From Escherichia phage UE-S1: 64,000 nt of DNA. Position 1 is the first letter of the stretch, and each line of letters opens with the position of its first letter. Shown here piece by piece: positions 18,121 through 49,151 of this stretch. The stretch is taken from the sequence record ON568341.1, one strand, 5' to 3'. A program made the position numbers and the translations under genes. A model generated the notes under the pieces. That model did not search any database. It was not told the origin of the DNA and worked only from the letters and a program-made list of their open reading frames with translations.

Positions 18121-18348
18121 ATGACAAATACCCTTAAGTACTACCTCAATACTCTGCCCGACCTAGAGTACGGGAAGTTTCTCGCAGATAGTTCGTGGCT
18201 GATTGAGCTAAAAAAATATAATAGTCCCGGATGCACCCTTATGATGAACAATGCAATTGATACCCTTATAGTGAGTATTTTACATAGCAACATCTACGGG
18301 GATAACAATAAACAATTAACAAAAATCTTAGTACTGCTATCTCTATGA
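18121..18348 (+). CDS. small protein, MNNHKEYY...LLIYRY-type family (75 aa)
   Basis: ATG 18121 with AGGAG SD; C-term hydrophobic ..TKILVLLSL. Confidence 0.5.
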   Translation: MTNTLKYYLNTLPDLEYGKFLADSSWLIELKKYNSPGCTLMMNNAIDTLIVSILHSNIYGDNNKQLTKILVLLSL

Positions 18349-18557
18349 ACACTATGAGCACTGAACAGTTCTACATCAATGCACTACCAACTAAAAGTCT
18401 TCAAGAAAGCTTACTGTATACACAAAAGAATTTTAAAAACTTCAAACGTTGCCCTAAACTACTGAACTCGTACAGGAATAATATTATAAGAAATGTTTTA
18501 CAAGGAGAAGAAAGTATGCAATACTATCACATCCTTATACTTATATTGGAGTACTAA
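18345..18557 (+). CDS. small protein, tandem family
   Basis: ATGA overlap with previous gene; C-term ..YYHILILILEY. Confidence 0.5.
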   Translation: MNTMSTEQFYINALPTKSLQESLLYTQKNFKNFKRCPKLLNSYRNNIIRNVLQGEESMQYYHILILILEY

Positions 18558-18558
18558 T

Positions 18559-18768
18559 ATGAATACTGAACATAAAGAATTCTACACCAAATACCTCAGT
18601 AACGAAGAACAATTGTTTCTAAGAAGTGTATCACCGGTAAGTACCAATACTCAATTCGGTAGAGATTGCTTTAATAATTGTATACGTAGTACCCTAGAAG
18701 CAATCGAATATAATAACAAAAATATTATGTACTCAGGTTTAATAGGACTAATATTCTTCTATGAATAA
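18559..18768 (+). CDS. small protein, tandem family
   Basis: TAATATG junction; MNTEHKEFYTKYL..; C-term LIGLIFFYE. Confidence 0.5.
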   Translation: MNTEHKEFYTKYLSNEEQLFLRSVSPVSTNTQFGRDCFNNCIRSTLEAIEYNNKNIMYSGLIGLIFFYE

Positions 18769-18955
18769 TCATAAAGATTTCTATGGTAGTAAACTACACA
18801 AACATGAACAGCTATCATTCTCTTTAGCACCACCTATGAGAAAGGATAATCTATATTATAATTACGATTTCAGGATGGCGACACGTTATGCAATAGAACA
18901 TCAGTTCCCTGAAACTAAGTACCGCTCTATCCTGAACCTCATCTTTAAGTTCTAA
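18761..18955 (+). CDS. small protein, tandem family
   Basis: MNNHKDFY N-terminus; overlaps previous stop. Confidence 0.5.
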   Translation: MNNHKDFYGSKLHKHEQLSFSLAPPMRKDNLYYNYDFRMATRYAIEHQFPETKYRSILNLIFKF

Positions 18956-19002
18956 AAACAGCACCAGGGTCCGAGTACTTTAACATAGTAAGGCTAATTA
19001 CA

Positions 19003-19188
19003 ATGAATCATATACGCTACTATTACCAACAACTATCCGACAGGGACAAGTACAGCCACAATTCCCATGTATGGTACTACAAACGCGGCAGTATAAGAGA
19101 CAAACAACATTACTTCTGTATTTCTATTAAAGAAGCACTAACAACTAAGTACACGTACAGAGCAGTACTTAAACTAATCTCTATCTAA
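19003..19188 (+). CDS. small protein (61 aa)
   Basis: ORF in tightly packed array; MNHIRYYYQQL. Confidence 0.45.
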   Translation: MNHIRYYYQQLSDRDKYSHNSHVWYYKRGSIRDKQHYFCISIKEALTTKYTYRAVLKLISI

Positions 19189-19196
19189 GGAATACT

Positions 19197-19376
19197 ATGC
19201 AAGAATTCTATATAGAACATATAACCATAAAAGACCGTTTCATGTACCACACCTTCGTGAAATACTACAAACTGGGAACAAAAAGTACTAAAAATATTAA
19301 TCTCAATAGCTGCATTCATTCTGCACTAACAAAAGATAATCCCTTCAGGGAAATCCTCGCACTAGCATCTGTATAA
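19197..19376 (+). CDS. small protein (59 aa), tandem family
   Basis: AAGGAA SD; MQEFYIEHI..; not in ORF track (under 60 aa). Confidence 0.4.
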   Translation: MQEFYIEHITIKDRFMYHTFVKYYKLGTKSTKNINLNSCIHSALTKDNPFREILALASV

Positions 19377-19386
19377 AGGAAACCAA

Positions 19387-20046
19387 ATGAAACTTAATGC
19401 ACACAGCAAACAATACCTTAAGCACTTTAAGTACCTCAACAGTATTCAAGCAGAATCTTTTACACCAGCATATACGTATCACCCTAATGTACTAAAGAAA
19501 CGAAATAAAAAGAAAAAATCCAGAAATGTTCTCGTATCTAAGAACCTCAAATCGTACTTGAAGAAAAATAATATAGCTCTTGCTTTTATTAATATCTATA
19601 ATACTGATTTAAAAGTATTGAGTACTAATACCAGCACAAAAGCACTAAAGAATGCATCTATCTATATACACATGGATAATATCCCGTGCACTATAATTCT
19701 ATCTTCCGGGAATGTATACTTCTTCGGGAATTGTAATAGCACCCATGATATCAGTACTGCACAATTCCAAATCGGAGATATGTACTGCATGGGTTCAGAA
19801 AAAATACACGATAATATGCACTTCTTCCAAAAGCAACGTACTAACGAAACTGATACAGTACTGCAATTCCTCAAAGAACTAGAACACAAAGAATTATCCG
19901 AGGAAGAAGAATTCATGTACAGTACTGTAATCGATAATCCAGGACTCTATAAAAACGCGTACAAACTAACAAAACATGTACAGGAACTTATCAGTACTGA
20001 TAAGAAAATTCATCACCTCATTACGTATATTTCAAACTATGTATAA
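19387..20046 (+). CDS. hypothetical protein (219 aa)
   Basis: AAGGAAA SD; long ORF inside the small-protein array. Confidence 0.5.
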   Translation: MKLNAHSKQYLKHFKYLNSIQAESFTPAYTYHPNVLKKRNKKKKSRNVLVSKNLKSYLKKNNIALAFINIYNTDLKVLSTNTSTKALKNASIYIHMDNIPCTIILSSGNVYFFGNCNSTHDISTAQFQIGDMYCMGSEKIHDNMHFFQKQRTNETDTVLQFLKELEHKELSEEEEFMYSTVIDNPGLYKNAYKLTKHVQELISTDKKIHHLITYISNYV

Positions 20047-20221
20047 AGAATACTACATAGAGAAACTCCCAATGCATCTACAACACCATATACCAAACGT
20101 TGCATTGGGCATAACCGAGCACGCAAAGATAATGTTCCAACAATGTACTAAGTACACGCTCATATACGATGATAATCCATATATGCTGTACTACGTAGTA
20201 ATGCTAACATTCAGGTACTAA
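20039..20221 (+). CDS. small protein, tandem family
   Basis: MYKEYYIEKLPMHLQ..; C-term YYVVMLTFRY; overlaps previous stop. Confidence 0.5.
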   Translation: MYKEYYIEKLPMHLQHHIPNVALGITEHAKIMFQQCTKYTLIYDDNPYMLYYVVMLTFRY

Positions 20222-20222
20222 T

Positions 20223-20402
20223 ATGAATACTTATAAAGAATTCTACCTCTCGTACCTTAATTCCGATATAGTAACATCCAATACATTCAGTACTAAAATT
20301 ATCTATAATGAAGTAATGAAAGAATGTATTAAAGGTGCTATTAACCCTAAAGATACGTATGACTTGTACTATGCAGTACTAACCCTTGTTTTCACGAAAT
20401 AA
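20223..20402 (+). CDS. small protein (59 aa), tandem family
   Basis: TAATATG junction; MNTYKEFYLSYL..YAVLTLVFTK. Confidence 0.4.
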   Translation: MNTYKEFYLSYLNSDIVTSNTFSTKIIYNEVMKECIKGAINPKDTYDLYYAVLTLVFTK

Positions 20403-20410
20403 CACATAAT

Positions 20411-20602
20411 ATGAATAACCACAAAGAATACTACATAGAGAAACTCCCAATGTATCTCCAACACCTTCTACCAACAGAACCATTGCGTATAGAAAAAAAC
20501 TACGAAAAAGACTACTTCATTCAGTGCACTAAATCCTCGATATATATTGAAGACTATAATCGAGTACTGTATCACATCCTTTTACTAATATATAAGTACT
20601 AA
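20411..20602 (+). CDS. small protein, tandem family
   Basis: MNNHKEYYIEKLPMYLQ..YHILLLIYKY. Confidence 0.55.
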   Translation: MNNHKEYYIEKLPMYLQHLLPTEPLRIEKNYEKDYFIQCTKSSIYIEDYNRVLYHILLLIYKY

Positions 20603-20603
20603 T

Positions 20604-20792
20604 ATGAATAACCACAAAGAATACTACACACAATTTCTCCCCAGCATTTTGGAACAATACGCCAGATATAAAGTCCCCCTCGATAACGATTTGGCAGTAC
20701 TGGGATTCAATAACTGCATAGAACGAAGTATAGAAAATAGTAATAGCTATGAACAATTATATAACACTATCCTACTTATATTCAGGTACTAA
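20604..20792 (+). CDS. small protein, tandem family
   Basis: TAATATG junction; MNNHKEYYTQFL..YNTILLIFRY. Confidence 0.55.
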   Translation: MNNHKEYYTQFLPSILEQYARYKVPLDNDLAVLGFNNCIERSIENSNSYEQLYNTILLIFRY

Positions 20793-20793
20793 T

Positions 20794-20982
20794 ATGTATA
20801 AAGAATACTACGCAAAATATTTCCCAATGTATCTCAGAACTAATCTATTAGATAAACCTCGCGATATCAATGCACAAAACGATAAAGTGTACTTTATTAT
20901 GTGCACTAAAGCATGTATACTAGATCATGACAGCTACCATCGAGTACTGTATCATACACTGTACCTAGCTTTCGTATACTAA
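20794..20982 (+). CDS. small protein, tandem family
   Basis: TAATATG junction; MYKEYYAKYFPMYL..YHTLYLAFVY. Confidence 0.5.
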   Translation: MYKEYYAKYFPMYLRTNLLDKPRDINAQNDKVYFIMCTKACILDHDSYHRVLYHTLYLAFVY

Positions 20983-21017
20983 AATGTACTCCGGTTTAAT
21001 AGGACTAATATTCTTCT

Positions 21018-21197
21018 ATGAATAATCATAAAGATTTCTACATAAGCCATCTGGATATAAACTCCCAAATGCTTATACTACTAAACACAATAGATTTCAA
21101 GGATAAGAAAAAGATCCAACAATTCATTGACCATACGGACCGTGCTGTGAACCAAAATTATATGTACTACATTCTCGCCCTAATATACAGGTACTAA
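21018..21197 (+). CDS. small protein (59 aa), tandem family
   Basis: MNNHKDFYISHL..YYILALIYRY. Confidence 0.45.
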   Translation: MNNHKDFYISHLDINSQMLILLNTIDFKDKKKIQQFIDHTDRAVNQNYMYYILALIYRY

Positions 21198-21198
21198 T

Positions 21199-21384
21199 AT
21201 GCATAGAGAATACTATATACAATTTGTTAAAGAAAACTACAAACACGCCGTCCCCGTAAACCCTTTAAATTCTAATGACCCAAGTACTATATTCTTGTTC
21301 CATGACGCAATACGTACAGTACTCAATACTAAAGATGAACAAGTGCAGTACGTATTCTTACTTTTACTTATATACAGACACTAA
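21199..21384 (+). CDS. small protein, tandem family
   Basis: TAATATG junction; MHREYYIQF..FLLLLIYRH. Confidence 0.5.
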   Translation: MHREYYIQFVKENYKHAVPVNPLNSNDPSTIFLFHDAIRTVLNTKDEQVQYVFLLLLIYRH

Positions 21385-21397
21385 AGCACTAACTAAT

Positions 21398-21598
21398 ATG
21401 AATAAAGAATATAAAGACTTCTATATAAGTAAACTAAAAGAAAATGAACAAGCATGGATTCAACCACTAATAATACTTCCATTTAATAGATATTCATTGA
21501 ACCGATGTACCGAGATTGCTATAGACCCTTGTCCTATTAAAGAGAATGTACAATACAATCAGTACTACTATATCTTAATGCTTATATATAGGAAGTAA
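21398..21598 (+). CDS. small protein, tandem family
   Basis: ATG 21398 (TAATATG-type context); MNKEYKDFYISKL..YYILMLIYRK. Confidence 0.5.
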   Translation: MNKEYKDFYISKLKENEQAWIQPLIILPFNRYSLNRCTEIAIDPCPIKENVQYNQYYYILMLIYRK

Positions 21599-35335: not shown

Positions 35336-35368
35336 ACTTACATCAACCACTGATAAGGAAACATTAAA

Positions 35369-37191: not shown

Positions 37192-37434
37192 ATGATTACT
37201 TTAGAAAAACGTATCAAAGAAACTACATCGCTGGTGGAACTGTTAACAGTACTCAAATGTAAAACAACACCATTTAGCACGCCGGACTTTATTAATATGG
37301 TTGATGTTAATGGTCGCTATCGTATCACGGTCGAACAAGGAGCGGCGAAAGTATTCAGTACTAAAAACACGAAGGAAGTGATCCACGCCGTTAATGTTAA
37401 AAAAGTAGTTGCCATTGATAGTAAAGTACTGTAA
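37192..37434 (+). CDS. hypothetical early protein (80 aa)
   Basis: ATG 37192 after GGGGGAAA; promoter/leader duplicated from 36859-36915. Confidence 0.5.
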   Translation: MITLEKRIKETTSLVELLTVLKCKTTPFSTPDFINMVDVNGRYRITVEQGAAKVFSTKNTKEVIHAVNVKKVVAIDSKVL

Positions 37435-37465
37435 TATAGTTTCATTAACTCAAGGAGAACATGCA

Positions 37466-38050: not shown

Positions 38051-38067
38051 AAAAGATTAAAAAAGGG

Positions 38068-38105
38068 ATTGACTCCGGTCAGTCCCTTTGCTATTATATA
38101 TCCAT
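38068..38105 (+). terminator. terminator hairpin with embedded promoter (composite element)
   Basis: AAAAAAGGGATTGACTCCGGTCAGTCCCTTTGCTATTATATA. Confidence 0.55.
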
Positions 38106-38191
38106 TGAGAGATAACTCACTGACCCATAGGGTGCGGAAGTGTATCTATTATATAAGTATTCAGTACTGAAAACTATTTTTAAAAAAGTAC

Positions 38192-38219
38192 TTGCAAACT
38201 ATCTCAATGAGCGTATAAT
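38192..38219 (+). promoter_or_regulatory. early sigma70-type promoter
   Basis: TTGCAA(38192-38197), 16 nt spacer, TATAAT(38214-38219). Confidence 0.55.
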
Positions 38220-38274
38220 GTTTTATATCGAGAGGGGGAAATGGTTCTCCCTAGTACTAAAAGGAATCAAGACG

Positions 38275-38496
38275 ATGACTACTATGACCTGCGTTCACGC
38301 TTCAAATCTTCTGAATGATGCAGCATTTAAAGCAGGTGAAGAATATCAATGCTATCGGGATGAAAATAAAAAAGTTTTTGTAGTTGATAATAATGGTTTC
38401 CATATTGAATTACAATCCGGCTTCACTGGTTTAAATGGTAAATCAGTATGGGGCGTACAGGATGATAAAGGTACATATCATTTTAAACGTAATTAA
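38275..38496 (+). CDS. hypothetical early protein (73 aa)
   Basis: ATG 38275 after AAAAGGAAT SD and leader hairpin GGGGGAAATGGTTCTCCC. Confidence 0.5.
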   Translation: MTTMTCVHASNLLNDAAFKAGEEYQCYRDENKKVFVVDNNGFHIELQSGFTGLNGKSVWGVQDDKGTYHFKRN

Positions 38497-38577
38497 GTAT
38501 TGACAAAGTATATCAGTACTGTATAATAGTTTACATCAAGGGGAGAATGGTTCTCCCCACTAAAAGGAAACAAAATT

Positions 38578-38850
38578 ATGTCCAGCTACTCCGCTACTAT
38601 GATCATTAAAGATATGAACGGTAATCCTACTTCTGCTGGTGGATCATTTGGAAACATTAATTTAGATGGTCGGTTATCCATGCAATCAGCCATCGATGCA
38701 GCGAAAGAAGTTTTTAAGAATGAATGTACTGTTAGTAAGCTGGATTATATGGGTTTCGCTATCGAGAAAACTACTCGTTTTGTGAACTACAAAAATCCAC
38801 TGATGATTGATACTAACCTGAAAGCTAACGAAGTGGGGTACTTATTATGA
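38578..38850 (+). CDS. hypothetical early protein (90 aa)
   Basis: AAAAGGAAA SD after hairpin; promoter TTGACA..TGTATAAT. Confidence 0.55.
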   Translation: MSSYSATMIIKDMNGNPTSAGGSFGNINLDGRLSMQSAIDAAKEVFKNECTVSKLDYMGFAIEKTTRFVNYKNPLMIDTNLKANEVGYLL

Positions 38851-39038
38851 CAGTAGAAGAAGTAAAAAAAGTACTGGCAGTACTACGATATCATAATCAT
38901 TGCAAGGTGAAGAATGATCCTGATTATCTTGATTCATCCCTGGAGGAAGACACCTTGAACGCTATAAGCCATATGCAGACATTAGCAAAGCGTATGACTG
39001 AAAAGAACATGCCGGACTATATCGGAAATAAAATTTAA
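38847..39038 (+). CDS. hypothetical early protein (63 aa)
   Basis: ATGA overlap with previous gene. Confidence 0.45.
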   Translation: MTVEEVKKVLAVLRYHNHCKVKNDPDYLDSSLEEDTLNAISHMQTLAKRMTEKNMPDYIGNKI

Positions 39039-39124
39039 AAAGTACTTGCATTGTAGTTAGATTAACGTATAATGTTTTATATCGAGAGGGGAAATGGTTT
39101 CCCCTCAAGTCCAGGAGATACACC

Positions 39125-39388
39125 ATGAACACTATCGAAATCACTATCAATGCACACGTATACGACAACGTAGTACTGCAAACTACTATGACCGCCAATG
39201 ATACCAGTACTTTGCGGAATACTGTTATTAGTGCTGTATGTGCCGCTATCGGTGATGTATCCCTGGAAAATTCAGAACACATCAACAACGGTTTCACTAT
39301 GTGCAAACGTGATAACGCAAAACATATCATCGTGGAAGGTTACGGCGGTGTAGAATTTAATGTTTATATGAAAAAAGTACTTGCATAA
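39125..39388 (+). CDS. hypothetical early protein (87 aa)
   Basis: CAGGAGA SD after hairpin GGGGAAATGGTTTCCCC. Confidence 0.5.
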   Translation: MNTIEITINAHVYDNVVLQTTMTANDTSTLRNTVISAVCAAIGDVSLENSEHINNGFTMCKRDNAKHIIVEGYGGVEFNVYMKKVLA

Positions 39389-39455
39389 TAACTAAAACAA
39401 AGTATAATGTTTTGCATAGGGGGAGATATCCTCCCCCACTAAAAGGAGTAATAAA

Positions 39456-39680
39456 ATGGCTAACTTTGATGAACTGATGCGGGAAGTAGCTTACCTGGCA
39501 GAAGAGAAGAAATCATTCGATTCTATCTATAACACCGCTCACCGTGATTCAGTACTGGCATGTAACCAGGATCAAAAAGATGAACTAATCGCCACCTATC
39601 ATGAAGCATGGAAGTACTACCGACAATGGGAGAAAGAAGAAAGTGAGTCTACCATTGACGGCCTCAATAATCTAATCTAA
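39456..39680 (+). CDS. hypothetical early protein (74 aa)
   Basis: AAAAGGAG SD after hairpin GGGGGAGATATCCTCCCCC. Confidence 0.5.
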   Translation: MANFDELMREVAYLAEEKKSFDSIYNTAHRDSVLACNQDQKDELIATYHEAWKYYRQWEKEESESTIDGLNNLI

Positions 39681-39756
39681 AAGTTTTATTTCAGTACTAT
39701 TGACATAGCTTGATAGTACTGATGTAATAACTTTACTAACTACAAGGGGAAACATA

Positions 39757-40014
39757 ATGGATCAATTCACACAATATCGGGTAAATCCTCAAGCTATGGC
39801 CTACGTAGAAGACCATAAAACGTTACCAGTACTGCAACCAGTTAAAGGCCGTATCTATCGTGGCCTTGCCTGGGATACGGCCCAGGATGGATATAAAACC
39901 GTCGCCGTGGGTATGTATTGCGGTGATGGTGAATGGTTTGATCCAAATAATCCGGTATCCATTGACAGTACTGAAAAAATGAAATGGGCCGACTACATCG
40001 AAGATATTTCATAA
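39757..40014 (+). CDS. hypothetical early protein (85 aa)
   Basis: AAGGGGAAA SD; promoter TTGACA..GATGTAAT. Confidence 0.5.
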   Translation: MDQFTQYRVNPQAMAYVEDHKTLPVLQPVKGRIYRGLAWDTAQDGYKTVAVGMYCGDGEWFDPNNPVSIDSTEKMKWADYIEDIS

Positions 40015-40104
40015 AAACTATTTGACAGTACTAACCAGTAATGTATAATGTTTTACATAGAGCGGGGGAATAGTTCTCCCGCCAATAGTTTGGAGTAAAA
40101 CATT

Positions 40105-40305
40105 ATGTCTATCGCTATCGCCCTGGTTGAAGTACTGAAAGAAGCTAAAGCCAACCTTATCGACGTAAAGATCCAGGAACTACAAAACGGCTTAATCGGC
40201 TGTACTTGTACCGCTGGTGGAGCGGCAGACTATCGAGAACACGAATCACTCGAATCACTGGTTCGGTATCTTACCATGATCGTTGATGATTGGAGAATCA
40301 TCTAA
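40105..40305 (+). CDS. hypothetical early protein (66 aa)
   Basis: TGGAG SD after hairpin GCGGGGGAATAGTTCTCCCGC. Confidence 0.5.
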   Translation: MSIAIALVEVLKEAKANLIDVKIQELQNGLIGCTCTAGGAADYREHESLESLVRYLTMIVDDWRII

Positions 40306-40322
40306 CAAAAAAGAATAAAAAA

Positions 40323-40360
40323 AGGGATTGACTCCGGTCAGTCCCTTTGCTATTATATAC
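40323..40360 (+). terminator. terminator hairpin with embedded promoter (composite element)
   Basis: AAAAAAAGGGATTGACTCCGGTCAGTCCCTTTGCTATTATATA. Confidence 0.55.
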
Positions 40361-40550
40361 GCATAGACAAAAACTAGCCCACAGGGTGCATAGGTGTATC
40401 CAAAATATATAGTTAATAACGGTGAGTAACTATCTGCTGGTGGAACTAAAACTATTAATAAAAAAGTATTGACAAAGTATATCAGTACTGCAATAATGTA
40501 TCTCGTAGGGCGGCAATGGTGCGACGGCCCACAAAGTTAGGAGATTCACC

Positions 40551-40883
40551 ATGAGTACTTCAATCGCTATCGTTAAAGCTTTCATCCGTACTAATGTTTC
40601 CTCTGTATTCATCGACGGCCTCGACCGTAACGTAGAATACTCAATCATTATCGCACAAACGGCAAACGGTTCTCGGTACATCCTGAATGATAGTGAAGCA
40701 AATCACTACTACTTCACTAAAGCCACTGGCTTTAAACGCATCGATGCTGATGTAGTATACGCTAAGATGAATAAGCTGGTAGACAAGATTAACGCGAAAG
40801 GTACTATCGATTTACAGTACTGGACCGAAACCGATCCAGAATATGGATCTCACCGCTACCTGAATCCAGGTATCAAAATGTAA
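40551..40883 (+). CDS. hypothetical early protein (110 aa)
   Basis: TAGGAGA SD; promoter TTGACA(40470)..TGCAATAAT. Confidence 0.5.
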   Translation: MSTSIAIVKAFIRTNVSSVFIDGLDRNVEYSIIIAQTANGSRYILNDSEANHYYFTKATGFKRIDADVVYAKMNKLVDKINAKGTIDLQYWTETDPEYGSHRYLNPGIKM

Positions 40884-40972
40884 AAAGTACTTGCATAGTA
40901 CTTAGATTCATGTATAATGTTTTACATAGAGAGGGGGAAATGGTTCTCCCTCCTAAATTAAGGAGTTTTATC

Positions 40973-41374
40973 ATGACCTTCTCAATCACTTCCTTCGCTG
41001 ACGTTTTAGTACTGGCCCGGACTTTTGGTAAAGCTGGCCTTGAGCACGCTGTAAGTAATGGTCATATGCACCCTGAATATTGCCGCATCATCGGTAGCTG
41101 CAAACGTTGGGCCGTGTCCCGTAACATTGAGATTGAAAACTTCAATGACGGCAACAACGAATATACAGTTGATGCAGTATTCGAAGCCGTTGATCTCGGC
41201 GGTATCTATAACACTAACCTGAATGATGTGCGTATCGTTCGCACGGGGTTCGGTGCTTATGATGTATCTATCCGTGAAGCTATGGACAAGGGATACATTA
41301 GCAAGGACCAGTTAGCTTACATCATGCAGCAAACTAAGGAACGTAACGAAGCACGTACTATCTTAGGGTTGTAA
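40973..41374 (+). CDS. hypothetical early protein (133 aa)
   Basis: ATG 40973 after TAAGGAG SD and hairpin GAGGGGGAAATGGTTCTCCCTCC. Confidence 0.55.
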   Translation: MTFSITSFADVLVLARTFGKAGLEHAVSNGHMHPEYCRIIGSCKRWAVSRNIEIENFNDGNNEYTVDAVFEAVDLGGIYNTNLNDVRIVRTGFGAYDVSIREAMDKGYISKDQLAYIMQQTKERNEARTILGL

Positions 41375-41747: not shown

Positions 41748-41871
41748 AAATAAAAGGGATTGGACTATGGCAAAATGCGTAGGGGGCTAAAGGGCGGGTA
41801 ACCTTAGCGACTTCGTTAAAGGGGTATTACGAATAAAATGTTATTGACTTTTTATATAAATCGTATAAAAT

Positions 41872-42099
41872 ATGATTGATAATAATTTTAAGGGAGTCCC
41901 TGTGCGTATTTTAACTCAAGCAGAACACCACGAAAGACTTATCAATAACATGGCTATGATAATGTATAAGTCCCATGACCGTGGTATTGCATATAAGCGT
42001 GAATTAGTACTGGAACTATTCATTGGGACTAACTATCAGGAAAGGTATGTCAACGATTGGATTTGGTATTTAATTGAAGATATAACGAGTAAACTATGA
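41872..42099 (+). CDS. LGTNYQE-family small protein (first of tandem array)
   Basis: Motif FIGTNYQERYV; ATG is only 2 nt after TATAAA, so start may be leaderless or internal. Confidence 0.45.
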   Translation: MIDNNFKGVPVRILTQAEHHERLINNMAMIMYKSHDRGIAYKRELVLELFIGTNYQERYVNDWIWYLIEDITSKL

Positions 42100-42290
42100 T
42101 AATTTTAACTAAAGAAGAATATCAATCACTGTTACGTAAAAACTACGTAAAGATTTACAATACAGCCACACACGTAGAACGAATGGAGTTATACCTTTTG
42201 ATTACATTGGGAACTAACTATCAGGAAAGATGGGTGATTCAATATATGGATACATTGAAAAATAAAATATTGTCCACGAGGAAACAATGA
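42096..42290 (+). CDS. LGTNYQE-family small protein
   Basis: ATGA overlap; motif LGTNYQERWV. Confidence 0.55.
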   Translation: MIILTKEEYQSLLRKNYVKIYNTATHVERMELYLLITLGTNYQERWVIQYMDTLKNKILSTRKQ

Positions 42291-42496
42291 AAATCATAAC
42301 ACACAGACAAGCATTGAGTCGTATGGTGAAGTATCTTGAATTGATGGTGTCTATACCAAAGAGCTTACCAAAAACTGAAAGAGAGATACATTCAGCAGAG
42401 TATCGTCTATTAGCAGTACTGAATACTAACTACCAAGATGAATATGTTGACGATTGGATTCTATCATTAATAGAAGATATAAAGAGTAAACTATGA
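42287..42496 (+). CDS. LGTNYQE-family small protein
   Basis: ATGA overlap; motif LNTNYQDEYV. Confidence 0.55.
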   Translation: MKIITHRQALSRMVKYLELMVSIPKSLPKTEREIHSAEYRLLAVLNTNYQDEYVDDWILSLIEDIKSKL

Positions 42497-42708
42497 ATAT
42501 CATTGCGAACTCACATCAATATACCGAACGCGTCGCTGCCAGACAACTTGAAATCCTCATAATATACGAAGAAACTTCTGATTTAAACTTAGCTGAGGTA
42601 TTGGAAAATGAAATACTTTTGGGTGCATTCTTGGGAACAGACTATCAGGAGTATTATGAGGAAAAGTATTTGTCATCTCTTGAGAAATACATCAGGAGTA
42701 AACAATGA
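42493..42708 (+). CDS. LGTNYQE-family small protein
   Basis: ATGA overlap; motif LGTDYQEYYE. Confidence 0.55.
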   Translation: MNIIANSHQYTERVAARQLEILIIYEETSDLNLAEVLENEILLGAFLGTDYQEYYEEKYLSSLEKYIRSKQ

Positions 42709-42932
42709 AACATTTAAGTATAAGAGAGAAGAATAAAATTATCATCAATGTCATGAACCGATATAATCAACTATTGGATAGAGAATACTCAAGTTCATAT
42801 GTGCACAGGATAAACACTACGGATGTACGCATGATGGCTGTACTGGGGACAAACTATCAGGAAAGTTATGTTCATGAGCACATAGTTGCACTCACTAATT
42901 ACATAATGGACAAATGTAATGAACATCATTAA
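42705..42932 (+). CDS. LGTNYQE-family small protein
   Basis: ATGA overlap; motif LGTNYQESYV. Confidence 0.55.
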   Translation: MKHLSIREKNKIIINVMNRYNQLLDREYSSSYVHRINTTDVRMMAVLGTNYQESYVHEHIVALTNYIMDKCNEHH

Positions 42933-43143
42933 TAACTTTGAATACGAGGCCCGTGTTAAGAGTGCCAGAGAAAAAGAGAACACCATTTACTTCACTATGA
43001 TGTACTTACAATGGACTGAAATTGAAGAAAAGGTTGCTGAAGTATGGATGTTGGAATTCATGGGGACGCAGTATCAGAATATGTTTGCGGGTGAGTATAT
43101 CAATGTTCTTATGAAACAAATAGAAAGGAAGGAAAAGAACTAA
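42919..43143 (+). CDS. LGTNYQE-family small protein
   Basis: motif MGTQYQNMFA. Confidence 0.55.
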   Translation: MNIINNFEYEARVKSAREKENTIYFTMMYLQWTEIEEKVAEVWMLEFMGTQYQNMFAGEYINVLMKQIERKEKN

Positions 43144-43179
43144 TGGAGGGATGCTGTACTTTATTTGAACTTTTATATA

Positions 43180-43228
43180 TTCATGAACACATAGTTGCCC
43201 TCACAAATCTAATAAAGGATAAATGTAA
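43180..43228 (+). pseudogene. remnant 3' fragment of an LGTNYQE-family gene
   Basis: ~85% identical by eye to 3' end of 42705..42932 (..HEHIVALTN..DKC..); no start codon. Confidence 0.45.
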
Positions 43229-43486
43229 ATGAAACACTTGACTGATGATGAACATGAAACTATAATTCGTAAACTAACCCCCATCACAAGGATAGTATAC
43301 GGTGATCCCAGCCTTACATGGAACCAAATGCAAGCTAAAGTTAATGAGCTATGGTTGCTGTACTTTATGGGGACTCAATATCAAGATAAGTTTTGCACAG
43401 AATATATCGAACAATTAACGAATGTTATACAGGATAAACTAAATGAACGAATTGTGGAAAAATATGAAAACTTTATCAAGCATTGA
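43229..43486 (+). CDS. LGTNYQE-family small protein
   Basis: motif MGTQYQDKFC; AAAGGA SD. Confidence 0.55.
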   Translation: MKHLTDDEHETIIRKLTPITRIVYGDPSLTWNQMQAKVNELWLLYFMGTQYQDKFCTEYIEQLTNVIQDKLNERIVEKYENFIKH

Positions 43487-43715
43487 GTATCAGACTGCCC
43501 TCTTCTCTCTTCTAAATACCCTCCGCACGAACAATAAACTTTATAATTCCCGTGAAGCTGATATTGTCAACGCTGATGTATATCTTAATAAATTCATTGG
43601 GACTAACTATCAAGAACTGTTTGTTTTACGATATATCTCTGCACTAAGAAACGAAATATCAGATAAAACCCGACAAGCCAGAAGAGAATGGAAGAAACAA
43701 TGCGACACAGACTAA
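43443..43715 (+). CDS. LGTNYQE-family small protein
   Basis: motif IGTNYQELFV; overlaps previous gene end. Confidence 0.5.
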   Translation: MNELWKNMKTLSSIEYQTALFSLLNTLRTNNKLYNSREADIVNADVYLNKFIGTNYQELFVLRYISALRNEISDKTRQARREWKKQCDTD

Positions 43716-43951
43716 ATCACAAAATGTATTGTAAACTATTACAGGAACTGACACAGAAACACTATAATACAATATCTTCCATATTACCCTATGATATCAT
43801 GCGTTTAATTCATAGTGAGGCAGAGATGTTAGTACTGATGACCGGTACTGATAAAATAGCAATCACCAGATCGATAGAGCAATATATTGATGCACACTGT
43901 CAATGTATTAGAACTGAGATATGGAGGCGAGTAAATGAAAGTACTGAATGA
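43688..43951 (+). CDS. LGTNYQE-family small protein (divergent)
   Basis: motif MTGTDKIAITR. Confidence 0.45.
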   Translation: MEETMRHRLNHKMYCKLLQELTQKHYNTISSILPYDIMRLIHSEAEMLVLMTGTDKIAITRSIEQYIDAHCQCIRTEIWRRVNESTE

Positions 43952-44150
43952 GTATCAGTATCATTGGAGGTTACAAACTATAAGAGGGAAAGTTGTTAGT
44001 ATTTCTTTAGACAAGTCTATTGCACAAGAGGACAAATGTGTTATAATAGCTGAAATGAAGTTGGGTGTATTTGTAGGAACAAACTATCAAAACATCTACA
44101 CTGACGTATTATTAAGTGCCTTACGCAACAAGGTGTTATCCAGAGAATGA
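43935..44150 (+). CDS. LGTNYQE-family small protein
   Basis: motif VGTNYQNIYT. Confidence 0.55.
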   Translation: MKVLNEYQYHWRLQTIRGKVVSISLDKSIAQEDKCVIIAEMKLGVFVGTNYQNIYTDVLLSALRNKVLSRE

Positions 44151-44365
44151 GAAAATTAATAGGTTACGAATATGTTAAGCTTCTGAAAACCTGTAGTATT
44201 AGCAGGGTAAAGATTCAATCTGATAAGAGTATTCCTGTTGAACTAAAGTACGCAATGATGGCTGAACTTTATGTAGGTGCACTATTGGGGACAAACTATC
44301 AACAAATGTATGTAGACCTATGGGTTGACGCTCTACAGAAAGAGGTCCAAAGTAAATGCAAATGA
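44147..44365 (+). CDS. LGTNYQE-family small protein
   Basis: ATGA overlap; motif LGTNYQQMYV. Confidence 0.55.
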   Translation: MRKLIGYEYVKLLKTCSISRVKIQSDKSIPVELKYAMMAELYVGALLGTNYQQMYVDLWVDALQKEVQSKCK

Positions 44366-44577
44366 TTCATTTATCTTACTATGAATATCAAAAACGTTTA
44401 AATGCATCAAGAGGTATAAGGATTCAAATCTTCAATAACAAAAGATTGAAATCTGAAGCCAAAAAAATCAAAATCATAGAAGCAGAGTTGTGCAACTTTC
44501 TAGGGACGAACTATCAGGAAGGTAAGATAAAAAACTATCTTAGAGAACTAATGATTAGTATCAAGAGTAAATGTTAG
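44356..44577 (+). CDS. LGTNYQE-family small protein
   Basis: motif LGTNYQEGKI. Confidence 0.55.
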   Translation: MQMIHLSYYEYQKRLNASRGIRIQIFNNKRLKSEAKKIKIIEAELCNFLGTNYQEGKIKNYLRELMISIKSKC

Positions 44578-44581
44578 GCAG

Positions 44582-44839
44582 ATGTACATGAAAATGATTA
44601 AATTATCTCAAGCAAAATATAAAGAACGCCTGGAAAAAATTACACCTAAACTTAATGAAATCCATCACGGAGAAGTCATTAAACACGGAAATAAGATGAT
44701 TATGAAACTTGAGTTAAAGGTGGGTGCATTCATAGGAACAAACTATCAGGAGTATTATGTAGATGAATACATAATCGCACTTAAGAGATACATTGGAAGA
44801 AAACTATATCTACAAACTAAAGAATTGTATTGCAAATAA
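44582..44839 (+). CDS. LGTNYQE-family small protein
   Basis: motif IGTNYQEYYV; true start may be ATG 44588. Confidence 0.5.
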   Translation: MYMKMIKLSQAKYKERLEKITPKLNEIHHGEVIKHGNKMIMKLELKVGAFIGTNYQEYYVDEYIIALKRYIGRKLYLQTKELYCK

Positions 44840-45120
44840 ATGTGAGGTTGATGAACATGCAAATGATTAATTTAAGTAAAGATGAATATACCGAGCGTAT
44901 GACAAAAATTACGCACAAACGTAATACAATCTATCACAACCCAGAAATTCAACACAGTAAGAAAATGATTATGATGCGTGAGTTAAAGATGGGTGTATTC
45001 TTAGGAACAAACTATCAAGATACAGAAGTAAATCGCTTAATCGCGGAGTTACTACTGGAAATCAGAGGTAAGCTGTACTTTCATCAAATGACCCAACCAC
45101 TGAGGTGTACTAAGAAATGA
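44830..45120 (+). CDS. LGTNYQE-family small protein
   Basis: motif LGTNYQDTEV; true start may be an internal ATG near 44857. Confidence 0.5.
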   Translation: MQINVRLMNMQMINLSKDEYTERMTKITHKRNTIYHNPEIQHSKKMIMMRELKMGVFLGTNYQDTEVNRLIAELLLEIRGKLYFHQMTQPLRCTKK

Positions 45121-45332
45121 TCAACATCACATTGCAAGAAAGATTCATCCGAATCAACTATGCAATTACCAAATTAGATGCTACTATAGGATTCCAAAGT
45201 CTACCGTTCCAAACAAGAATGATATTAGAGTGCGAAGCTAAATTGGGTGTACTGTTAGGAACGCAACACCAACAACGATATGTGGAAATCTGGATTGATC
45301 TTTTAACCCAAAATGTACATGAGAAAATGTAA
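45117..45332 (+). CDS. LGTNYQE-family small protein
   Basis: ATGA overlap; motif LGTQHQQRYV. Confidence 0.55.
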   Translation: MINITLQERFIRINYAITKLDATIGFQSLPFQTRMILECEAKLGVLLGTQHQQRYVEIWIDLLTQNVHEKM

Positions 45333-45569
45333 ATGAAAAATGAAATGATATACTTAACGAATGAAGAGTTTCAAGAGAAGATGTTAAAAATCTATGATAA
45401 TACTCTTGAGTACGTTCCAAATCAATCAATATATGAAGTGTCTGCGAATGTATTATTTCAGAAGCTACCATACGTTCTTGGTACTGATAAACAAGAATTT
45501 ATGGTCAAAAATATGATTGAACATCTTATGATGAGTATTAAGGAAAAAGTAAATGCAAAAACAAAATAA
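45333..45569 (+). CDS. LGTNYQE-family small protein
   Basis: TAAATG junction; motif LGTDKQEFMV. Confidence 0.55.
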   Translation: MKNEMIYLTNEEFQEKMLKIYDNTLEYVPNQSIYEVSANVLFQKLPYVLGTDKQEFMVKNMIEHLMMSIKEKVNAKTK

Positions 45570-45816
45570 AATGATATACTTAACACCTGCTGAGTTAACA
45601 GAAAGACTAGTTAAATCCAGAAGATATACAAATCAACTTCCTCACAACCCAAATCAAAGCCCAGCGGAAAGGAGTGCAGAAGTTTTATTCCAATCACTAC
45701 CATACCTTCTTGGAACTAATAGACAAGAGTATCATATCGAACGTATAATTAAATATCTTAAAATTACTATTAAGGAAAAGATACATGCTCAAGAATTTAA
45801 AAATCCTAACAGCTAA
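45553..45816 (+). CDS. LGTNYQE-family small protein
   Basis: motif LGTNRQEYHI. Confidence 0.55.
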   Translation: MQKQNKMIYLTPAELTERLVKSRRYTNQLPHNPNQSPAERSAEVLFQSLPYLLGTNRQEYHIERIIKYLKITIKEKIHAQEFKNPNS

Positions 45817-46027
45817 TGAATATCATAAGATTGTAATGACGACTAATAGTGCAATTTCTAAAAAATCAAATCCCAAATACATACTGGAACACACATTTGA
45901 AGAACGACAATTAACTTTAGTTGAAGCAAAACTTCTTGCACTCCTAGGAACAAACTATCAAGAAGAGTACGTTAGAAAACTAATATACCTTTTAACTAAA
46001 CATATTAGAAAAAAGAAAAACGCATGA
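45785..46027 (+). CDS. LGTNYQE-family small protein
   Basis: motif LGTNYQEEYV. Confidence 0.55.
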   Translation: MLKNLKILTANEYHKIVMTTNSAISKKSNPKYILEHTFEERQLTLVEAKLLALLGTNYQEEYVRKLIYLLTKHIRKKKNA

Positions 46028-46254
46028 AACACTTGACAGATGATGAACATGGGCTTATAGTAATGGATGTAATCAACATCGAATACAAAAAGTTGATACG
46101 CTACCGTTGTTATGAAGATAAGCAACTCGTTCTAGAAGAACAGAAGTTGTTTCGACTCTTAAACACAAACTACCAAGCACAATACGAAGAATCGTATATG
46201 TACCTTTTGGCGAGGAAAGCAAAAAGAGATTATGAAAATTTTAAGCGAAGGTGA
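46024..46254 (+). CDS. LGTNYQE-family small protein
   Basis: ATGA overlap; motif LNTNYQAQYE. Confidence 0.55.
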   Translation: MKHLTDDEHGLIVMDVINIEYKKLIRYRCYEDKQLVLEEQKLFRLLNTNYQAQYEESYMYLLARKAKRDYENFKRR

Positions 46255-46447
46255 TGCAGTAATATTACTTATCGAGAATTCACGTAAATTCGTAAACATA
46301 ACACTGTCTGATATAGATGAAGATGACAAAGAAGTACTGAGAGCAGATTTAAGAGTACTGTTACATCTCGGAACAAACCTACAAGAAAGATATGTAGAGT
46401 TCTACATTGATGAACTTAAAGAATCAGTACTGAAAAGATGCAAATGA
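46232..46447 (+). CDS. LGTNYQE-family small protein
   Basis: motif LGTNLQERYV. Confidence 0.55.
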   Translation: MKILSEGDAVILLIENSRKFVNITLSDIDEDDKEVLRADLRVLLHLGTNLQERYVEFYIDELKESVLKRCK

Positions 46448-46665
46448 AAATCATTACTGACGAAGAATACCTAACAATCATAAATGGACTGTTTTTGAAG
46501 CTATATGCTATTAACATATCAAACCTACCAGATATGGATAAAATTATTAAGAGAAATGAAATCTATGTTCTAGCTACCCTGGGAACTAACTATCAAGAAT
46601 ACGATATTAATGATTATATTAAGACACTTAAACGAGCGATTGAACTAAAATGCCAAAACCACTAG
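46438..46665 (+). CDS. LGTNYQE-family small protein
   Basis: motif LGTNYQEYDI. Confidence 0.55.
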   Translation: MQMKIITDEEYLTIINGLFLKLYAINISNLPDMDKIIKRNEIYVLATLGTNYQEYDINDYIKTLKRAIELKCQNH

Positions 46666-46865
46666 GAACAGCAGAATACATTGAACTCATGGGATTACAC
46701 TTCTCATCCTTTCAGAAACTTATGCGAGAATCAAAGAATGATTTAGAATATACCATCAGAGGTTCAGATTTAAGAATGCTTCTCACCCTAGACACAGATT
46801 CCCAAGAGCGATTTGTCAATGAGCACATTAGAGCACTTTTAATGGAAATTCAAAGTAAACTATGA
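46650..46865 (+). CDS. LGTNYQE-family small protein (divergent)
   Basis: motif LDTDSQERFV. Confidence 0.5.
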   Translation: MPKPLGTAEYIELMGLHFSSFQKLMRESKNDLEYTIRGSDLRMLLTLDTDSQERFVNEHIRALLMEIQSKL

Positions 46866-47077
46866 AGGAAATATCAAACCAAGAGTACTTGGCACTATTC
46901 AGAAAGAATAATCATAAATTTATGGCACTTGATACAAGAACTGATATAGGGGAACTTGAAAAAAATCTTTTGCGTTCAGAGATGATAGTACTGACACTTT
47001 TAGGAACACAGCATCAAGAGAGAACTGTTAATTCATATATTGAGATTCTTACGAAGCTTATACAGGAAAAACTATGA
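46862..47077 (+). CDS. LGTNYQE-family small protein
   Basis: ATGA overlap; motif LGTQHQERTV. Confidence 0.55.
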   Translation: MKEISNQEYLALFRKNNHKFMALDTRTDIGELEKNLLRSEMIVLTLLGTQHQERTVNSYIEILTKLIQEKL

Positions 47078-47295
47078 GAATCATAACACAAACAGACATA
47101 TTTAAGTTAGCAAGAGAACATACATCTGAAATTGATGCTATAGTATCAAAAAGTTACAATGACCCTTATACACAAGATGTACACTACAATGAATTATGGG
47201 TGTATATACTTTTAGGTACAAATTATCAAGAGCAAGCAGTACAGAAGTATTTGACAGCCTTAAGTACTGCTATTGCTAATGGAATAGGTGTTTAA
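47074..47295 (+). CDS. LGTNYQE-family small protein
   Basis: ATGA overlap; motif LGTNYQEQAV. Confidence 0.55.
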   Translation: MRIITQTDIFKLAREHTSEIDAIVSKSYNDPYTQDVHYNELWVYILLGTNYQEQAVQKYLTALSTAIANGIGV

Positions 47296-47539
47296 AATGC
47301 TAGTACTGACAGAACTAGAAATGTATCATAGATTTAACAAGTACTATCATTTACTTAAGCCTATACAGAGGATTAAATGTCCATTTGAAGAGAAACAGGT
47401 ATTAATTTATGAGCATAAGTTATTTGTATCATTAGGTACGAATGAACAAGAGTATTATTTGAAGTTGTACTTAATTACTTTAATTGAATTGATTAATCAC
47501 AAAACTCAGAAAGCTAAGAAATCTAAAAATGAAAACTAA
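47288..47539 (+). CDS. LGTNYQE-family small protein
   Basis: motif LGTNEQEYYL. Confidence 0.55.
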   Translation: MFKMLVLTELEMYHRFNKYYHLLKPIQRIKCPFEEKQVLIYEHKLFVSLGTNEQEYYLKLYLITLIELINHKTQKAKKSKNEN

Positions 47540-47867
47540 TATTCAACTCAAGGTATACATATCTTATGAATCTATATACATCAAATGCAGTCTATGTAAA
47601 GATGTAATGGATTATAAAGGTAAGCCATTCACAATTACTTACAGTCTAACAGGAGGTTTTTATATATCTTTTGTTGATTACGAAAATAAAATATACAAGC
47701 ACATTGATATTAAAGATTTAAGTACCTTGTCAGATGAGGAATACTTTCAAGAATCATTAGTATGGGATTTAGAGTTTCCTATGACATTAGTACACAAAAT
47801 GATAGTTCTAATGAAAGAAACTAAACCTGAGCCGAGTGGTTATGAAGAATTCATTATTGAGTATTAA
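47529..47867 (+). CDS. FQxSLVxD-family protein (first member, interleaved with LGTNYQE array)
   Basis: motif EEYFQESLVWDLEFPM. Confidence 0.55.
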   Translation: MKTNIQLKVYISYESIYIKCSLCKDVMDYKGKPFTITYSLTGGFYISFVDYENKIYKHIDIKDLSTLSDEEYFQESLVWDLEFPMTLVHKMIVLMKETKPEPSGYEEFIIEY

Positions 47868-47879
47868 GAGTACTGATAT

Positions 47880-48095
47880 ATGAAAATATTATCATACAAA
47901 GATTATAGTAAGCTTATCAGTGCTTTGCAACCAGAAATTAGGAGAATTAATTCTCTTCCTGTATCTAATGCAGAATGTACAGTACTGAAAAAAGAGTTAA
48001 TATTAAAACGCACAGTAGGTACTAACTATCAGGATAATAGTGTTCGAGATTTAATTAGAGGGTTAATGAACACAATAAAGGCCAAGTGCCATTGA
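47880..48095 (+). CDS. LGTNYQE-family small protein
   Basis: motif VGTNYQDNSV. Confidence 0.55.
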   Translation: MKILSYKDYSKLISALQPEIRRINSLPVSNAECTVLKKELILKRTVGTNYQDNSVRDLIRGLMNTIKAKCH

Positions 48096-48159
48096 CAGTA
48101 CTTGACGGAGCTTTTCATTACTGATATAGTACACAAACGTTAATCATAGGGTAGAAATT

Positions 48160-48405
48160 ATGTTAAAATTTTTAAATTTCCTTATCGTCTTGTGTATTGT
48201 TCTTGGGATTGCACCGTTTGTACTGGTGTATATGGATTCAGATGAAATGCAAAAGATGAATTGCACAAAGACGGGACAGAGTAGAGAAGAGACGATTCTT
48301 ATGCCTGTTACCGTTATTGTTAATAATATGCCCATTACAAACATGGTCCCTAACCTAACGACAACGTACCAGTACTCTTGTACAGACGGGGAGAGGTGGA
48401 GATGA
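48160..48405 (+). CDS. small membrane protein (81 aa)
   Basis: Hydrophobic N-terminus FLNFLIVLCIVLGIAPFVLV; promoter-like TTGACG-17-TATAGT upstream. Confidence 0.45.
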   Translation: MLKFLNFLIVLCIVLGIAPFVLVYMDSDEMQKMNCTKTGQSREETILMPVTVIVNNMPITNMVPNLTTTYQYSCTDGERWR

Positions 48406-48722
48406 AATTTAATATAGCAAAAACATCGAATGTATGTATATTTGGTTATGCAGATGAGTTAGGTGATCTTGACATTCTTTTGTACAAAAAGGATGGTGTT
48501 ATGCATTTCAAGTACCAGGATGAAGAGGCAGACAATTATCCTTTACCTAATTTAGTACAAATGCAGGAAGAGGAATTATTCCAGTACAGCTTAGTATATG
48601 ACATTGATATTTGCACGATGCCAGTACTAATTAATATTCAAAAAGTGATGCTCGATGTGTTTGATAGGCTAATACAAGGCACACAAGGAAGAACCATATA
48701 TGTCAATGTACAAGACAATTAA
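48402..48722 (+). CDS. FQxSLVxD-family protein
   Basis: ATG 48402 after GGAGAGGTGGAG SD; motif EEELFQYSLVYDIDICTMP. Confidence 0.55.
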   Translation: MKFNIAKTSNVCIFGYADELGDLDILLYKKDGVMHFKYQDEEADNYPLPNLVQMQEEELFQYSLVYDIDICTMPVLINIQKVMLDVFDRLIQGTQGRTIYVNVQDN

Positions 48723-48915
48723 TCAAGAATGGAAGACCCAAAAATACAGAGAATTCAATAGGAATTTTACAAAAGACGAATTGAATATAAAAACAACAGA
48801 ATTTGATATGTTTATTTTTCTCGGAACACGTTCACAGGAGCAATTTGTTCATTATTATATAAATTCGTTGCGAACGGAGATAGTATGCAAAACAAAGGGT
48901 ATTATAAAAAGGTAA
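48700..48915 (+). CDS. LGTNYQE-like small protein (divergent)
   Basis: motif LGTRSQEQFV. Confidence 0.5.
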   Translation: MSMYKTINQEWKTQKYREFNRNFTKDELNIKTTEFDMFIFLGTRSQEQFVHYYINSLRTEIVCKTKGIIKR

Positions 48916-49151
48916 ACCAACATTTGTACGCTACAAAGTACAGGGATTTTTGTTTAAAGGGTGGTGATGAAGATTTTTCTTTGCGATTATCAGAATTTAA
49001 TCTGTTATTTTATCTTGGTACATCGGAACAAGAAGAAATGGCACAGAAATTTATCAAGCACCTTGTACAAAAAATTAATATGCAAATTTTGATGCTTAAG
49101 TTACAGAATGAGATAAATGAATATGAACCCAACAATAGTACTGGATCTTAA
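48885..49151 (+). CDS. LGTNYQE-like small protein (divergent)
   Basis: motif LGTSEQEEMA. Confidence 0.5.
   Translation: MQNKGYYKKVNQHLYATKYRDFCLKGGDEDFSLRLSEFNLLFYLGTSEQEEMAQKFIKHLVQKINMQILMLKLQNEINEYEPNNSTGS

Follow-up and report, generated by a model that had tools for sequence, protein, structure and literature searches.

Tandem multigene families evolve by birth and death, through unequal crossover and pseudogenization. Here we describe two arrays of small paralogous genes in a 64,000-nucleotide stretch of Escherichia phage UE-S1 (ON568341.1), which we call the window, and two gene-end stubs that lie within these arrays. The arrays resemble birth-and-death families in that their copy number varies among close relatives, hybrid genes lie at in-register joints and truncated remnants are present. 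They depart from the usual model in that the genome is that of a lytic jumbo phage, the genes encode ~70 aa, the remnants are biased towards the 3' end, and the tiny ORFs that are left fit the overlaps of an operon. Poxviruses are said to possess “genomic accordions”, as reportedly described by Elde and colleagues in 2012 for the amplification of K3L. Like these accordions, the phage arrays are tandem arrays that expand and contract by recombination near the terminus of a large dsDNA viral genome; unlike them, the phage copies are old and diverged rather than recent, near-identical amplicons, and gave no sign of adaptive amplification.

The genomes of tailed phages are mosaics with “novel joints” at gene boundaries, as formulated in the Hendrix/Hatfull model. 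Exchanges in the arrays likewise tend to occur close to or at gene boundaries, and those that survive keep their genes functional, the window combining site A of one group of relatives (class I, see below) with site B of another (class II). In contrast to the Hendrix/Hatfull model, exchange is aided here by homology between paralogues, in their conserved N- and C-terminal motifs, and is not a matter of illegitimate recombination alone. Cistrons that overlap as ATGA or TAATG can be translationally coupled by termination-reinitiation. The array junctions and both stub ORFs overlap in the same manner; in our case the overlaps are read from the sequence, and a relay role of the stubs is only tentatively proposed from them. 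With regard to jumbo phages, the report on CBB, a Rak2-like phage, gives 22 paralogous ORFs (PMC5259590), and gene duplication is acknowledged there for the phage group, as in the arrays. The sources returned by our literature search contained only generic mentions of paralogues; by keyword, the arrays, their position flanking the direct terminal repeat (DTR) and the remnants were not found described in them.

Two arrays of small paralogous genes

The window belongs to an Asteriusvirus-type (121Q/PBECO4/G17-like) jumbo coliphage. We found 33 Asteriusvirus records related to it at 82-96% identity. When the region 41800-46100 was compared, 33 GenBank phage records were matched at 82-90% identity, all of them Asteriusvirus-type jumbo coliphages or Salmonella phages, including G17, Sharanji, JP4, slurp01, PBECO4 and 121Q. 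For these 4301 bp, the matched counterpart measures 5014 bp in G17, 4794 bp in JP4 and ~4416 bp in E9.1, and matched spans this unequal indicate that the content of the array differs from relative to relative.

Array 1 (41872..49151) consists of ~28-30 tandem genes of ~70 aa belonging to phrog_4148 (E=1e-16 to 1e-22), which share an LGTNYQE motif and the invariant residues T49, Q52 and L63. Array 2 (18345..21598) consists of ~13 tandem phrog_11711 genes of ~60 aa with the pattern MNxHKEFY...LIFRY, and is interrupted by a 219-aa gene (19387-20046; phrog_29152, E=5e-114). Both arrays, the stubs, the repeat copies and the genes next to them are on the + strand. The array units measure ~190-230 bp. 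The paralogues are 14-46% identical in amino acid sequence to the reference member of each alignment, with a mean column identity of 27-31%. The best adjacent pair at the DNA level reaches 74% over 222 bp (44531-44751 vs 44800-45020, genes 44582-44839 and 44830-45120) and is the youngest-looking duplicate of array 1; near-identical recent tandem copies are absent from the arrays. Two further phrog_4148-like small genes, at 60515-60733 and 60711-60902, are located ~11 kb beyond array 1. A tblastn comparison of all array proteins with the window revealed no additional remnant outside genes.

The position of the arrays was deduced from vB_Ec-M-J, in which the direct terminal repeat is annotated at 1-21,525, and the array-1 genes start from 21,624, and from the end of array 2, which lies just ahead of the right-hand copy of the repeat. 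Carried over to the window, this layout gives the order array 2, terminal repeat (~21.7-41.8 kb), array 1. The two arrays therefore flank the terminal repeat immediately, one on each side.

Two gene-end repeats in the window

A sequence-only reading of the window had proposed that two gene ends were duplicated in the arrays. We tested the repeats by self-BLASTN of the 64-kb window, the self-alignment which that reading had called for, and obtained significant similarity at both sets of coordinates, to within a few bases. Repeat (i) pairs 43176-43233 with 42867-42923 over 58 bp (82.8%, E=2.5e-8). The latter copy runs from the 3' end of gene X' (42705..42932; 75 aa, phrog_4148) into the start of gene Y (42919..43143; 74 aa, phrog_4148). 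Repeat (ii) pairs 20984-21040 with 18727-18783 over 57 bp (98.2%, 1 mismatch, E=8e-21). Both repeats are far above chance in a self-comparison of 64 kb.

The proposal that 43180-43228 is a ~85% copy of the 3' end of 42705-42932 agrees with our count (41/49, 84%), and the self-BLASTN match extends this copy to 58 bp. The second repeat, given as 20985-21042 vs 18727-18784 with about 2 mismatches, is also real, with coordinates shifted by 1 nt and with 1 mismatch. Its content was correctly recognized: gene 18559-18768 contributes its last 13 codons (MYSGLIGLIFFYE and the stop codon), and the gene that follows, referred to here as A-next, its first 8 (MNNHKDFY).

Stub (i), a 29-aa ORF between genes Y and Z

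The segment at (i) had been taken to have no start codon. This is wrong, since ATG 43143-43145 opens an in-frame ORF of 29 aa (43143..43232; MEGCCTLFELLYIHEHIVALTNLIKDKCK and the stop codon), which we call stub (i). The ORF begins at TAATG (43141-43145), where its ATG overlaps the stop of Y, and terminates with TGA (43230-43232) in an ATGA (43229-43232) that includes the ATG of gene Z (43229..43486; 85 aa, phrog_4148). While 43180-43228 is genuinely a remnant, the homologous part is longer: 43145-43232 aligns to a 52-aa ORF of the relatives at 81.8% over 99 columns (E=4e-25). This ORF, named x'' (MVFINISDQLDTKLEVEQSEGWMLYFLGTSHQNFYIHEHIVALTNLIRDKCK), is a CDS located exactly between the Y and Z orthologues in JP4, G17 and SD-2_S15, and a matched span of ~870 bp implies the arrangement Y-x''-Z in 10 phages (11 records). 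Class sizes at this locus are given by matched span, one member of each class having been read.

Stub (i) is most readily seen as a decayed orthologue of x''. It equals x'' minus 58 bp and 11 bp, in two alignment gaps that total 69 bp, a multiple of three, and both the ancestral start and the ancestral stop are retained in the 29-aa ORF. The relatives' ORF matches phrog_4148 at profile positions 27-72 of 74 (E=1.9e-10), and it appears to be already 5'-truncated and itself defective. In the window, the 29-aa ORF gives no PHROG match; it is devoid of helices 1-3, and the GTxxQ motif is in the wrong reading frame.

Analysis of x'' revealed that it is chimeric. Its nucleotides 57-87 match Z at 80.6%, its N-terminal part is, as protein, most similar to Y and Z, and the 54 nt at its 3' end match X' at 83%. 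A gene of the Z/Y type would thus be the source of its 5' and middle part. As the chimera is common to ~10 relatives, the similarity between stub (i) and X' is old and does not come from an event in the genome of the window. Rather, it probably reflects past recombination between an X-type and a Y/Z-type paralogue.

Four structural alleles were distinguished here, X'-Y-x''-Z, X-Z, X-W-Z and V-Y-Z, or five if the stub of the window is counted. By matched span, 12 relatives form a class of ~492 bp with a fused single gene; in SP27, the member that was read, the switch from X'-like to x''-like sequence occurs inside CACATAGTTGCNCTCAC, that is, within the repeat. Because the partner changes inside the repeat, the repeat is a recombination joint in either direction. 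Both X and x'' are missing from 121Q. With the polarity reversed, the SP27-type fused gene could be ancestral and the JP4-type arrangement an insertion. The stub (i) junction itself is absent from the 33 relatives and gave 0 matches in IMG/VR and 0 in JGI metagenomes.

Stub (ii), a 13-codon ORF at the start of gene B1

Stub (ii) is a mini-ORF of 13 codons at 20984..21025, with the structure ATG-TAC-...-GAA-TAA. It starts 1 nt after the upstream TAA (TAA-A-ATG, 20980-20986) and overlaps by 8 nt, in ATGAATAA at 21018-21025, the gene that opens at ATG 21018 (B1, 21018..21197; 59 aa, phrog_11711). The copy of repeat (ii) at this site comprises the stub and the first 8 codons of B1, which are identical to those of A-next. 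The other copy includes the end of gene A (18559..18768; 69 aa, phrog_11711), the intact paralogue at what we call site A.

The stub appears to be the 3' remnant of a 68-aa paralogue, A2 (phrog_11711, E=3e-13). By alignment, A2 is intact in TH47, WPEC5, CMSTMSU, EC22.5-2 and ph0011, where it lies between the orthologue of gene 20794 and B1 (site B). The stub keeps 13 of the 68 residues of A2, and 13/13 are identical to the tail of gene A. Compared with TH47, the window is missing 174 bp, which begin just past the stop of the preceding gene and extend as far as the codon for Met56 of A2, in frame, and the deletion junction (CTAAA/ATGTACTC) shows homology of at most 1-2 nt. A microhomology-mediated origin of this deletion was considered and rejected: TGTACT occurs near both ends, yet both copies are kept, so it is not the joint.

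By matched span, ~11 relatives have A2 at site B and ~16 do not, having only a 9-bp spacer there (confirmed in JP4 and phAPEC6). In all seven relatives checked (7/7), only one of the two genes was present, either A at site A or A2 at site B. In class I (JP4, phAPEC6, SD-15), gene A occupies site A and nothing is at site B; in class II (WPEC5, TH47, CMSTMSU, EC22.5-2), nothing is at site A and A2 occupies site B. Only the window combines the two, A2 being present as a remnant. Its gene A is 97% identical in amino acids to that of JP4, and its B1, beyond the 8 shared codons, is 88% identical to that of TH47; identity of B1 to the JP4 protein is 63%. The joint presence of A and an A2 remnant, the JP4-like A and the TH47-like B1 indicate that array 2 is an inter-lineage mosaic, which briefly carried two copies of the subfamily. 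Stub (ii) itself is present in no relative, and its junction had 0 matches in IMG/VR and JGI metagenomes. In BAU.Micro_ELP-22 (L014, 310-498), we also noted an apparent tandem duplicate of the upstream 20794-type gene in place of A2, which would be a fourth structural state at site B.

The stub (ii) repeat matches the window's own site A at 56/57 positions, TH47 A2 at 51/58 and WPEC5 A2 at 46/58. At the four sites where TH47 differs, it agrees with site A every time. Depending on the background that is assumed, agreement at 56/57 positions or more has a probability of ~9e-5 to 0.03, with only ~4 informative sites. The right edge of the repeat falls within the conserved N-terminal HK(D/E)FY motif and marks a homologous switch point. 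This pattern points to a possible patch of ectopic conversion or repair. No such patch would be needed if an unsampled parent possessed an A2 whose tail was A-like.

In-register exchange in the arrays

Whole genes have also been exchanged in register. In array 2, two alignment blocks overlap at 19165..19199, where the partner switches inside the conserved 3'-end motif GTACTNAAACT. At this joint the window lacks ~735 bp, corresponding to four annotated JP4 genes, and the same extra span is present in WPEC5. A second indel of array 2 relative to JP4, of ~570 bp and with a 14-bp overlap at 21410-21423, corresponds to three annotated genes absent from the window. The hybrid genes left at these joints are 19003-19188 and 21398-21598. 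Array 1 differs from that of G17 by three one-unit indels, with alignment blocks overlapping by 123, 89 and 338 bp at 42586-42708, 44285-44373 and 45450-45787, respectively. Two neighbouring G17 genes are matched by the first of these segments, a pattern typical of an in-register indel of one unit.

In-register exchange involves whole genes and produces intact hybrids, and consequently it leaves no scar. Hybrid genes were seen at the older joints (the x'' chimera, the SP27 fused gene and 19165-19199) and at none of the window-specific deletions. The stubs and the in-register indels appear to be different classes of event. Short patches of 39-72 bp with 79-92% identity were additionally observed between non-adjacent, diverged paralogues (42620-42658 vs 44721-44759; 42028-42099 vs 42425-42496; 20045-20096 vs 20423-20474), and these could be further conversion tracts or strongly constrained motifs.

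Origin of the stub junctions

Both repeats had been interpreted as footprints of unequal crossover between array members. Part of this stands, as they are real remnants of paralogous array genes and both loci clearly show recombination between members; what does not stand is that the deletions which made the stubs were unequal crossovers. We consider it improbable that unequal homologous crossover within the genome of the window produced the stubs directly, even though paralogous repeats are available, in-register crossovers occur in both arrays, x'' is a chimera and repeat (ii) ends on the right in a conserved motif. None of the window-specific changes (58+11 bp and 174 bp) amounts to a whole unit, and their junctions share at most 1-2 nt, which argues that the stubs are not products of unequal crossover. 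Moreover, had 18727-18783 and 20984-21040 crossed over, ~2.26 kb would have been deleted or duplicated, while the intervening genes are still collinear with those of the relatives, and the chimera at (i) is older than the window genome. An artefact of assembly, by collapse or mis-joining in the arrays, is very improbable. The arrays are indeed repetitive, and both junctions are unique when compared with the 33 relatives, IMG/VR and JGI metagenomes. Nevertheless, the paralogues are so diverged in DNA that few pairs align, the stub repeats measure only 57-58 bp, the deletion junctions coincide with no repeat able to cause a mis-join, and the flanks on both sides are collinear with the relatives.

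Gene ends and translation

In array 1 the genes overlap or abut, with twelve ATGA overlaps and, as far as 48095, no gap longer than 12 nt, and in array 2 the junctions are mostly TAA-N-ATG. Both stub ORFs fit these stop/start patterns. At many junctions, as read by eye, a purine-rich Shine-Dalgarno-like stretch lies within the last codons of the upstream gene. For Z, an AAGGA is located 9 nt before ATG 43229, inside stub (i) and the repeat; for B1, the nearest AGGA is 13 nt from the ATG and poorly placed. Members that are 5'-truncated and 3'-intact recur among the relatives (121Q gp321, 49 aa; a 52-aa CDS of Turkey3; x''). The sequence AGGGAT..TAAATGA just upstream of Z is kept in 4/5 structural alleles, with 121Q as the exception, and is preceded by a different gene body in each: X in SP27, W in Turkey3, x'' in JP4 and the stub in the window. 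We infer that the 3' end of each gene acts as the translation-initiation region of the next, in which case only deletions that spare the 3' end would survive. In Turkey3, the 5'-truncated member follows an untranslated gap of 70 nt, which indicates that a translated bridge is not obligatory.

These observations bear on whether the stubs might be maintained by selection as mini-cistrons that relay ribosomes from the upstream to the downstream gene, a possibility that we regard as doubtful. Both ORFs overlap the upstream stop or start within 1 nt of it, and both end overlapping the downstream ATG. The 174-bp deletion ends on the right exactly on an in-frame ATG, as a rough estimate of ~1-2% of random endpoints would; the resulting TACTAA-A-ATG mimics the canonical TACTAA-T-ATG of the array, B1 has the poorly placed AGGA noted above, and the sequence upstream of Z is retained in all alleles except that of 121Q. 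Selection for a translatable relay would fit these observations, as a post hoc argument from two cases. However, retention of the frame at (i) has a chance of ~1 in 3 and is not evidence of selection, a plausible Shine-Dalgarno sequence for Z lies inside stub (i), so that a translated bridge may not be needed, and the gap of Turkey3 is tolerated. Both junctions are also private to the window, leaving no evolutionary time in which conservation could be revealed. Least probable of all is a regulatory role of the gaps, as internal promoter, terminator or structured RNA, with an incidental likeness to gene ends. If the stub ORF is ignored, the gap of 85 nt at (i) is the largest in array 1 up to 48095, and shortly downstream of it, at 43238-43266 inside gene Z, there is a sigma-70-like sequence matching at 11/12 positions. 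Against this, promoter-like counts are no higher than in shuffled sequence and no such site falls within the stubs, the stubs contain no terminator, their RNA folding z-scores are -0.32 and -0.05, and base-by-base orthology to coding sequence of the relatives fully explains the stub sequence. With neither promoter or terminator enrichment nor RNA structure, we rejected a regulatory element in the gaps.

A birth-and-death model for the stubs

Both stubs are probably dying members of tandem multigene arrays that flank an Asteriusvirus-type terminal repeat and evolve by birth and death. Our model proposes that homologous exchange among paralogues and co-infecting relatives would be frequent, with whole genes being gained, lost and hybridized, and that individual copies would then be truncated by occasional non-homologous deletions. 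At (i), the series would start from a presumed full-length member of ~74 aa, pass through the chimeric, 5'-truncated 52-aa ORF present in ~10 relatives, continue with the loss of 58+11 bp that gave the 29-aa residue of the window, and finish with nothing left, as in the relatives with a single fused gene. The likeness of stub (i) to the 3' end of 42705-42932 would be inherited from the old chimera. At (ii), a mosaic genome would have come to carry A2 at site B in addition to A at site A, and A2 would subsequently have been cut by the 174-bp deletion. The 57 bp near-identical to A/A-next would derive from ectopic repair or gene conversion, with a homologous end in HKDFY and an illegitimate end on the left.

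The model further suggests why the 3' ends remain. Under tight, operon-like packing, the last codons of a gene would hold the Shine-Dalgarno sequence and the overlapping start of the next one, and the downstream gene would stay expressed only if a deletion spares the 3' end and leaves a short translatable bridge. It is from the comparison of sequences that we infer in which direction the changes went, that a conversion patch was involved and that 3' ends are retained by selection. Having longer syntenic orthologues, homology to the families and a lost conserved core, both stubs qualify as truncated pseudogene remnants, for which a normal role is implausible. They represent ordinary, expected biology and are of modest interest, as a worked example. 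They provide a base-level, multi-genome view of how the small-gene arrays of jumbo phages gain, hybridize and lose members, in which whole-unit, in-register exchange is scarless and an occasional illegitimate deletion leaves 3'-end stubs. Such stubs merit annotation as remnants or mini-ORFs rather than as intergenic DNA.

Array families and other features of the window

Both phrog_4148 and phrog_11711 are large families, which we encountered only in Asteriusvirus phages. Neither had a significant Pfam match (DUF6327 and Pre-PUA were sub-threshold), PADLOC gave only a weak Cas2b match (E=0.014), and a sequence profile search of the PDB returned nothing under E=0.2. An AlphaFold2 model of the array-1 member 44147-44365, built with the window's own paralogues as input, reached a pLDDT of 97.7 and consists of four helices, with the GTNYQ motif at the H3-H4 turn. 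With this confidently predicted four-helix fold for phrog_4148, and with phrog_11711 likewise placed beside the terminal repeat, the two families are candidates for functional study. It is conceivable, and in our judgement unlikely, that the arrays would be fast-turnover early genes for host takeover or anti-defense, that the operon pattern would force genes to die from the 5' end first, and that dead genes would persist as selected relay mini-ORFs.

Several other features were recorded. Sigma-70-like sequences occur directly before array 1 (41844-41871, TTGACT-16-TAAAAT) and directly before array 2 (18067-18095, TTGACA-17-TACAAT); counts of sigma-70-like sites overall are not above those in shuffled sequence. 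The presumed terminal repeat (23500-41000) contains many dispersed direct repeats of ~70-240 bp between small genes, for example 25243-25440 vs 35155-35353 (90%), 31685-31923 vs 38049-38281 (81%) and 35042-35134 vs 40308-40400 (90%). These repeats might represent copies of promoter or regulatory cassettes.

Multigene families are unusually numerous in the window. On the - strand, 7481-18024 carries nine tandem paralogues of ~375-395 aa and one of 245 aa, annotated in the relatives as “regulator of chromosome condensation” (RCC1-like). These genes have repeats of 105-125 bp with 84-92% identity at their boundaries, such as 11090-11212 vs 16747-16871. Two more tandem paralogue arrays are present at 3922-6747 (genes of ~104-141 aa) and 55543-60004 (genes of ~119-242 aa), and 56636-57087 and 58021-58478 are 71% identical over 460 bp.
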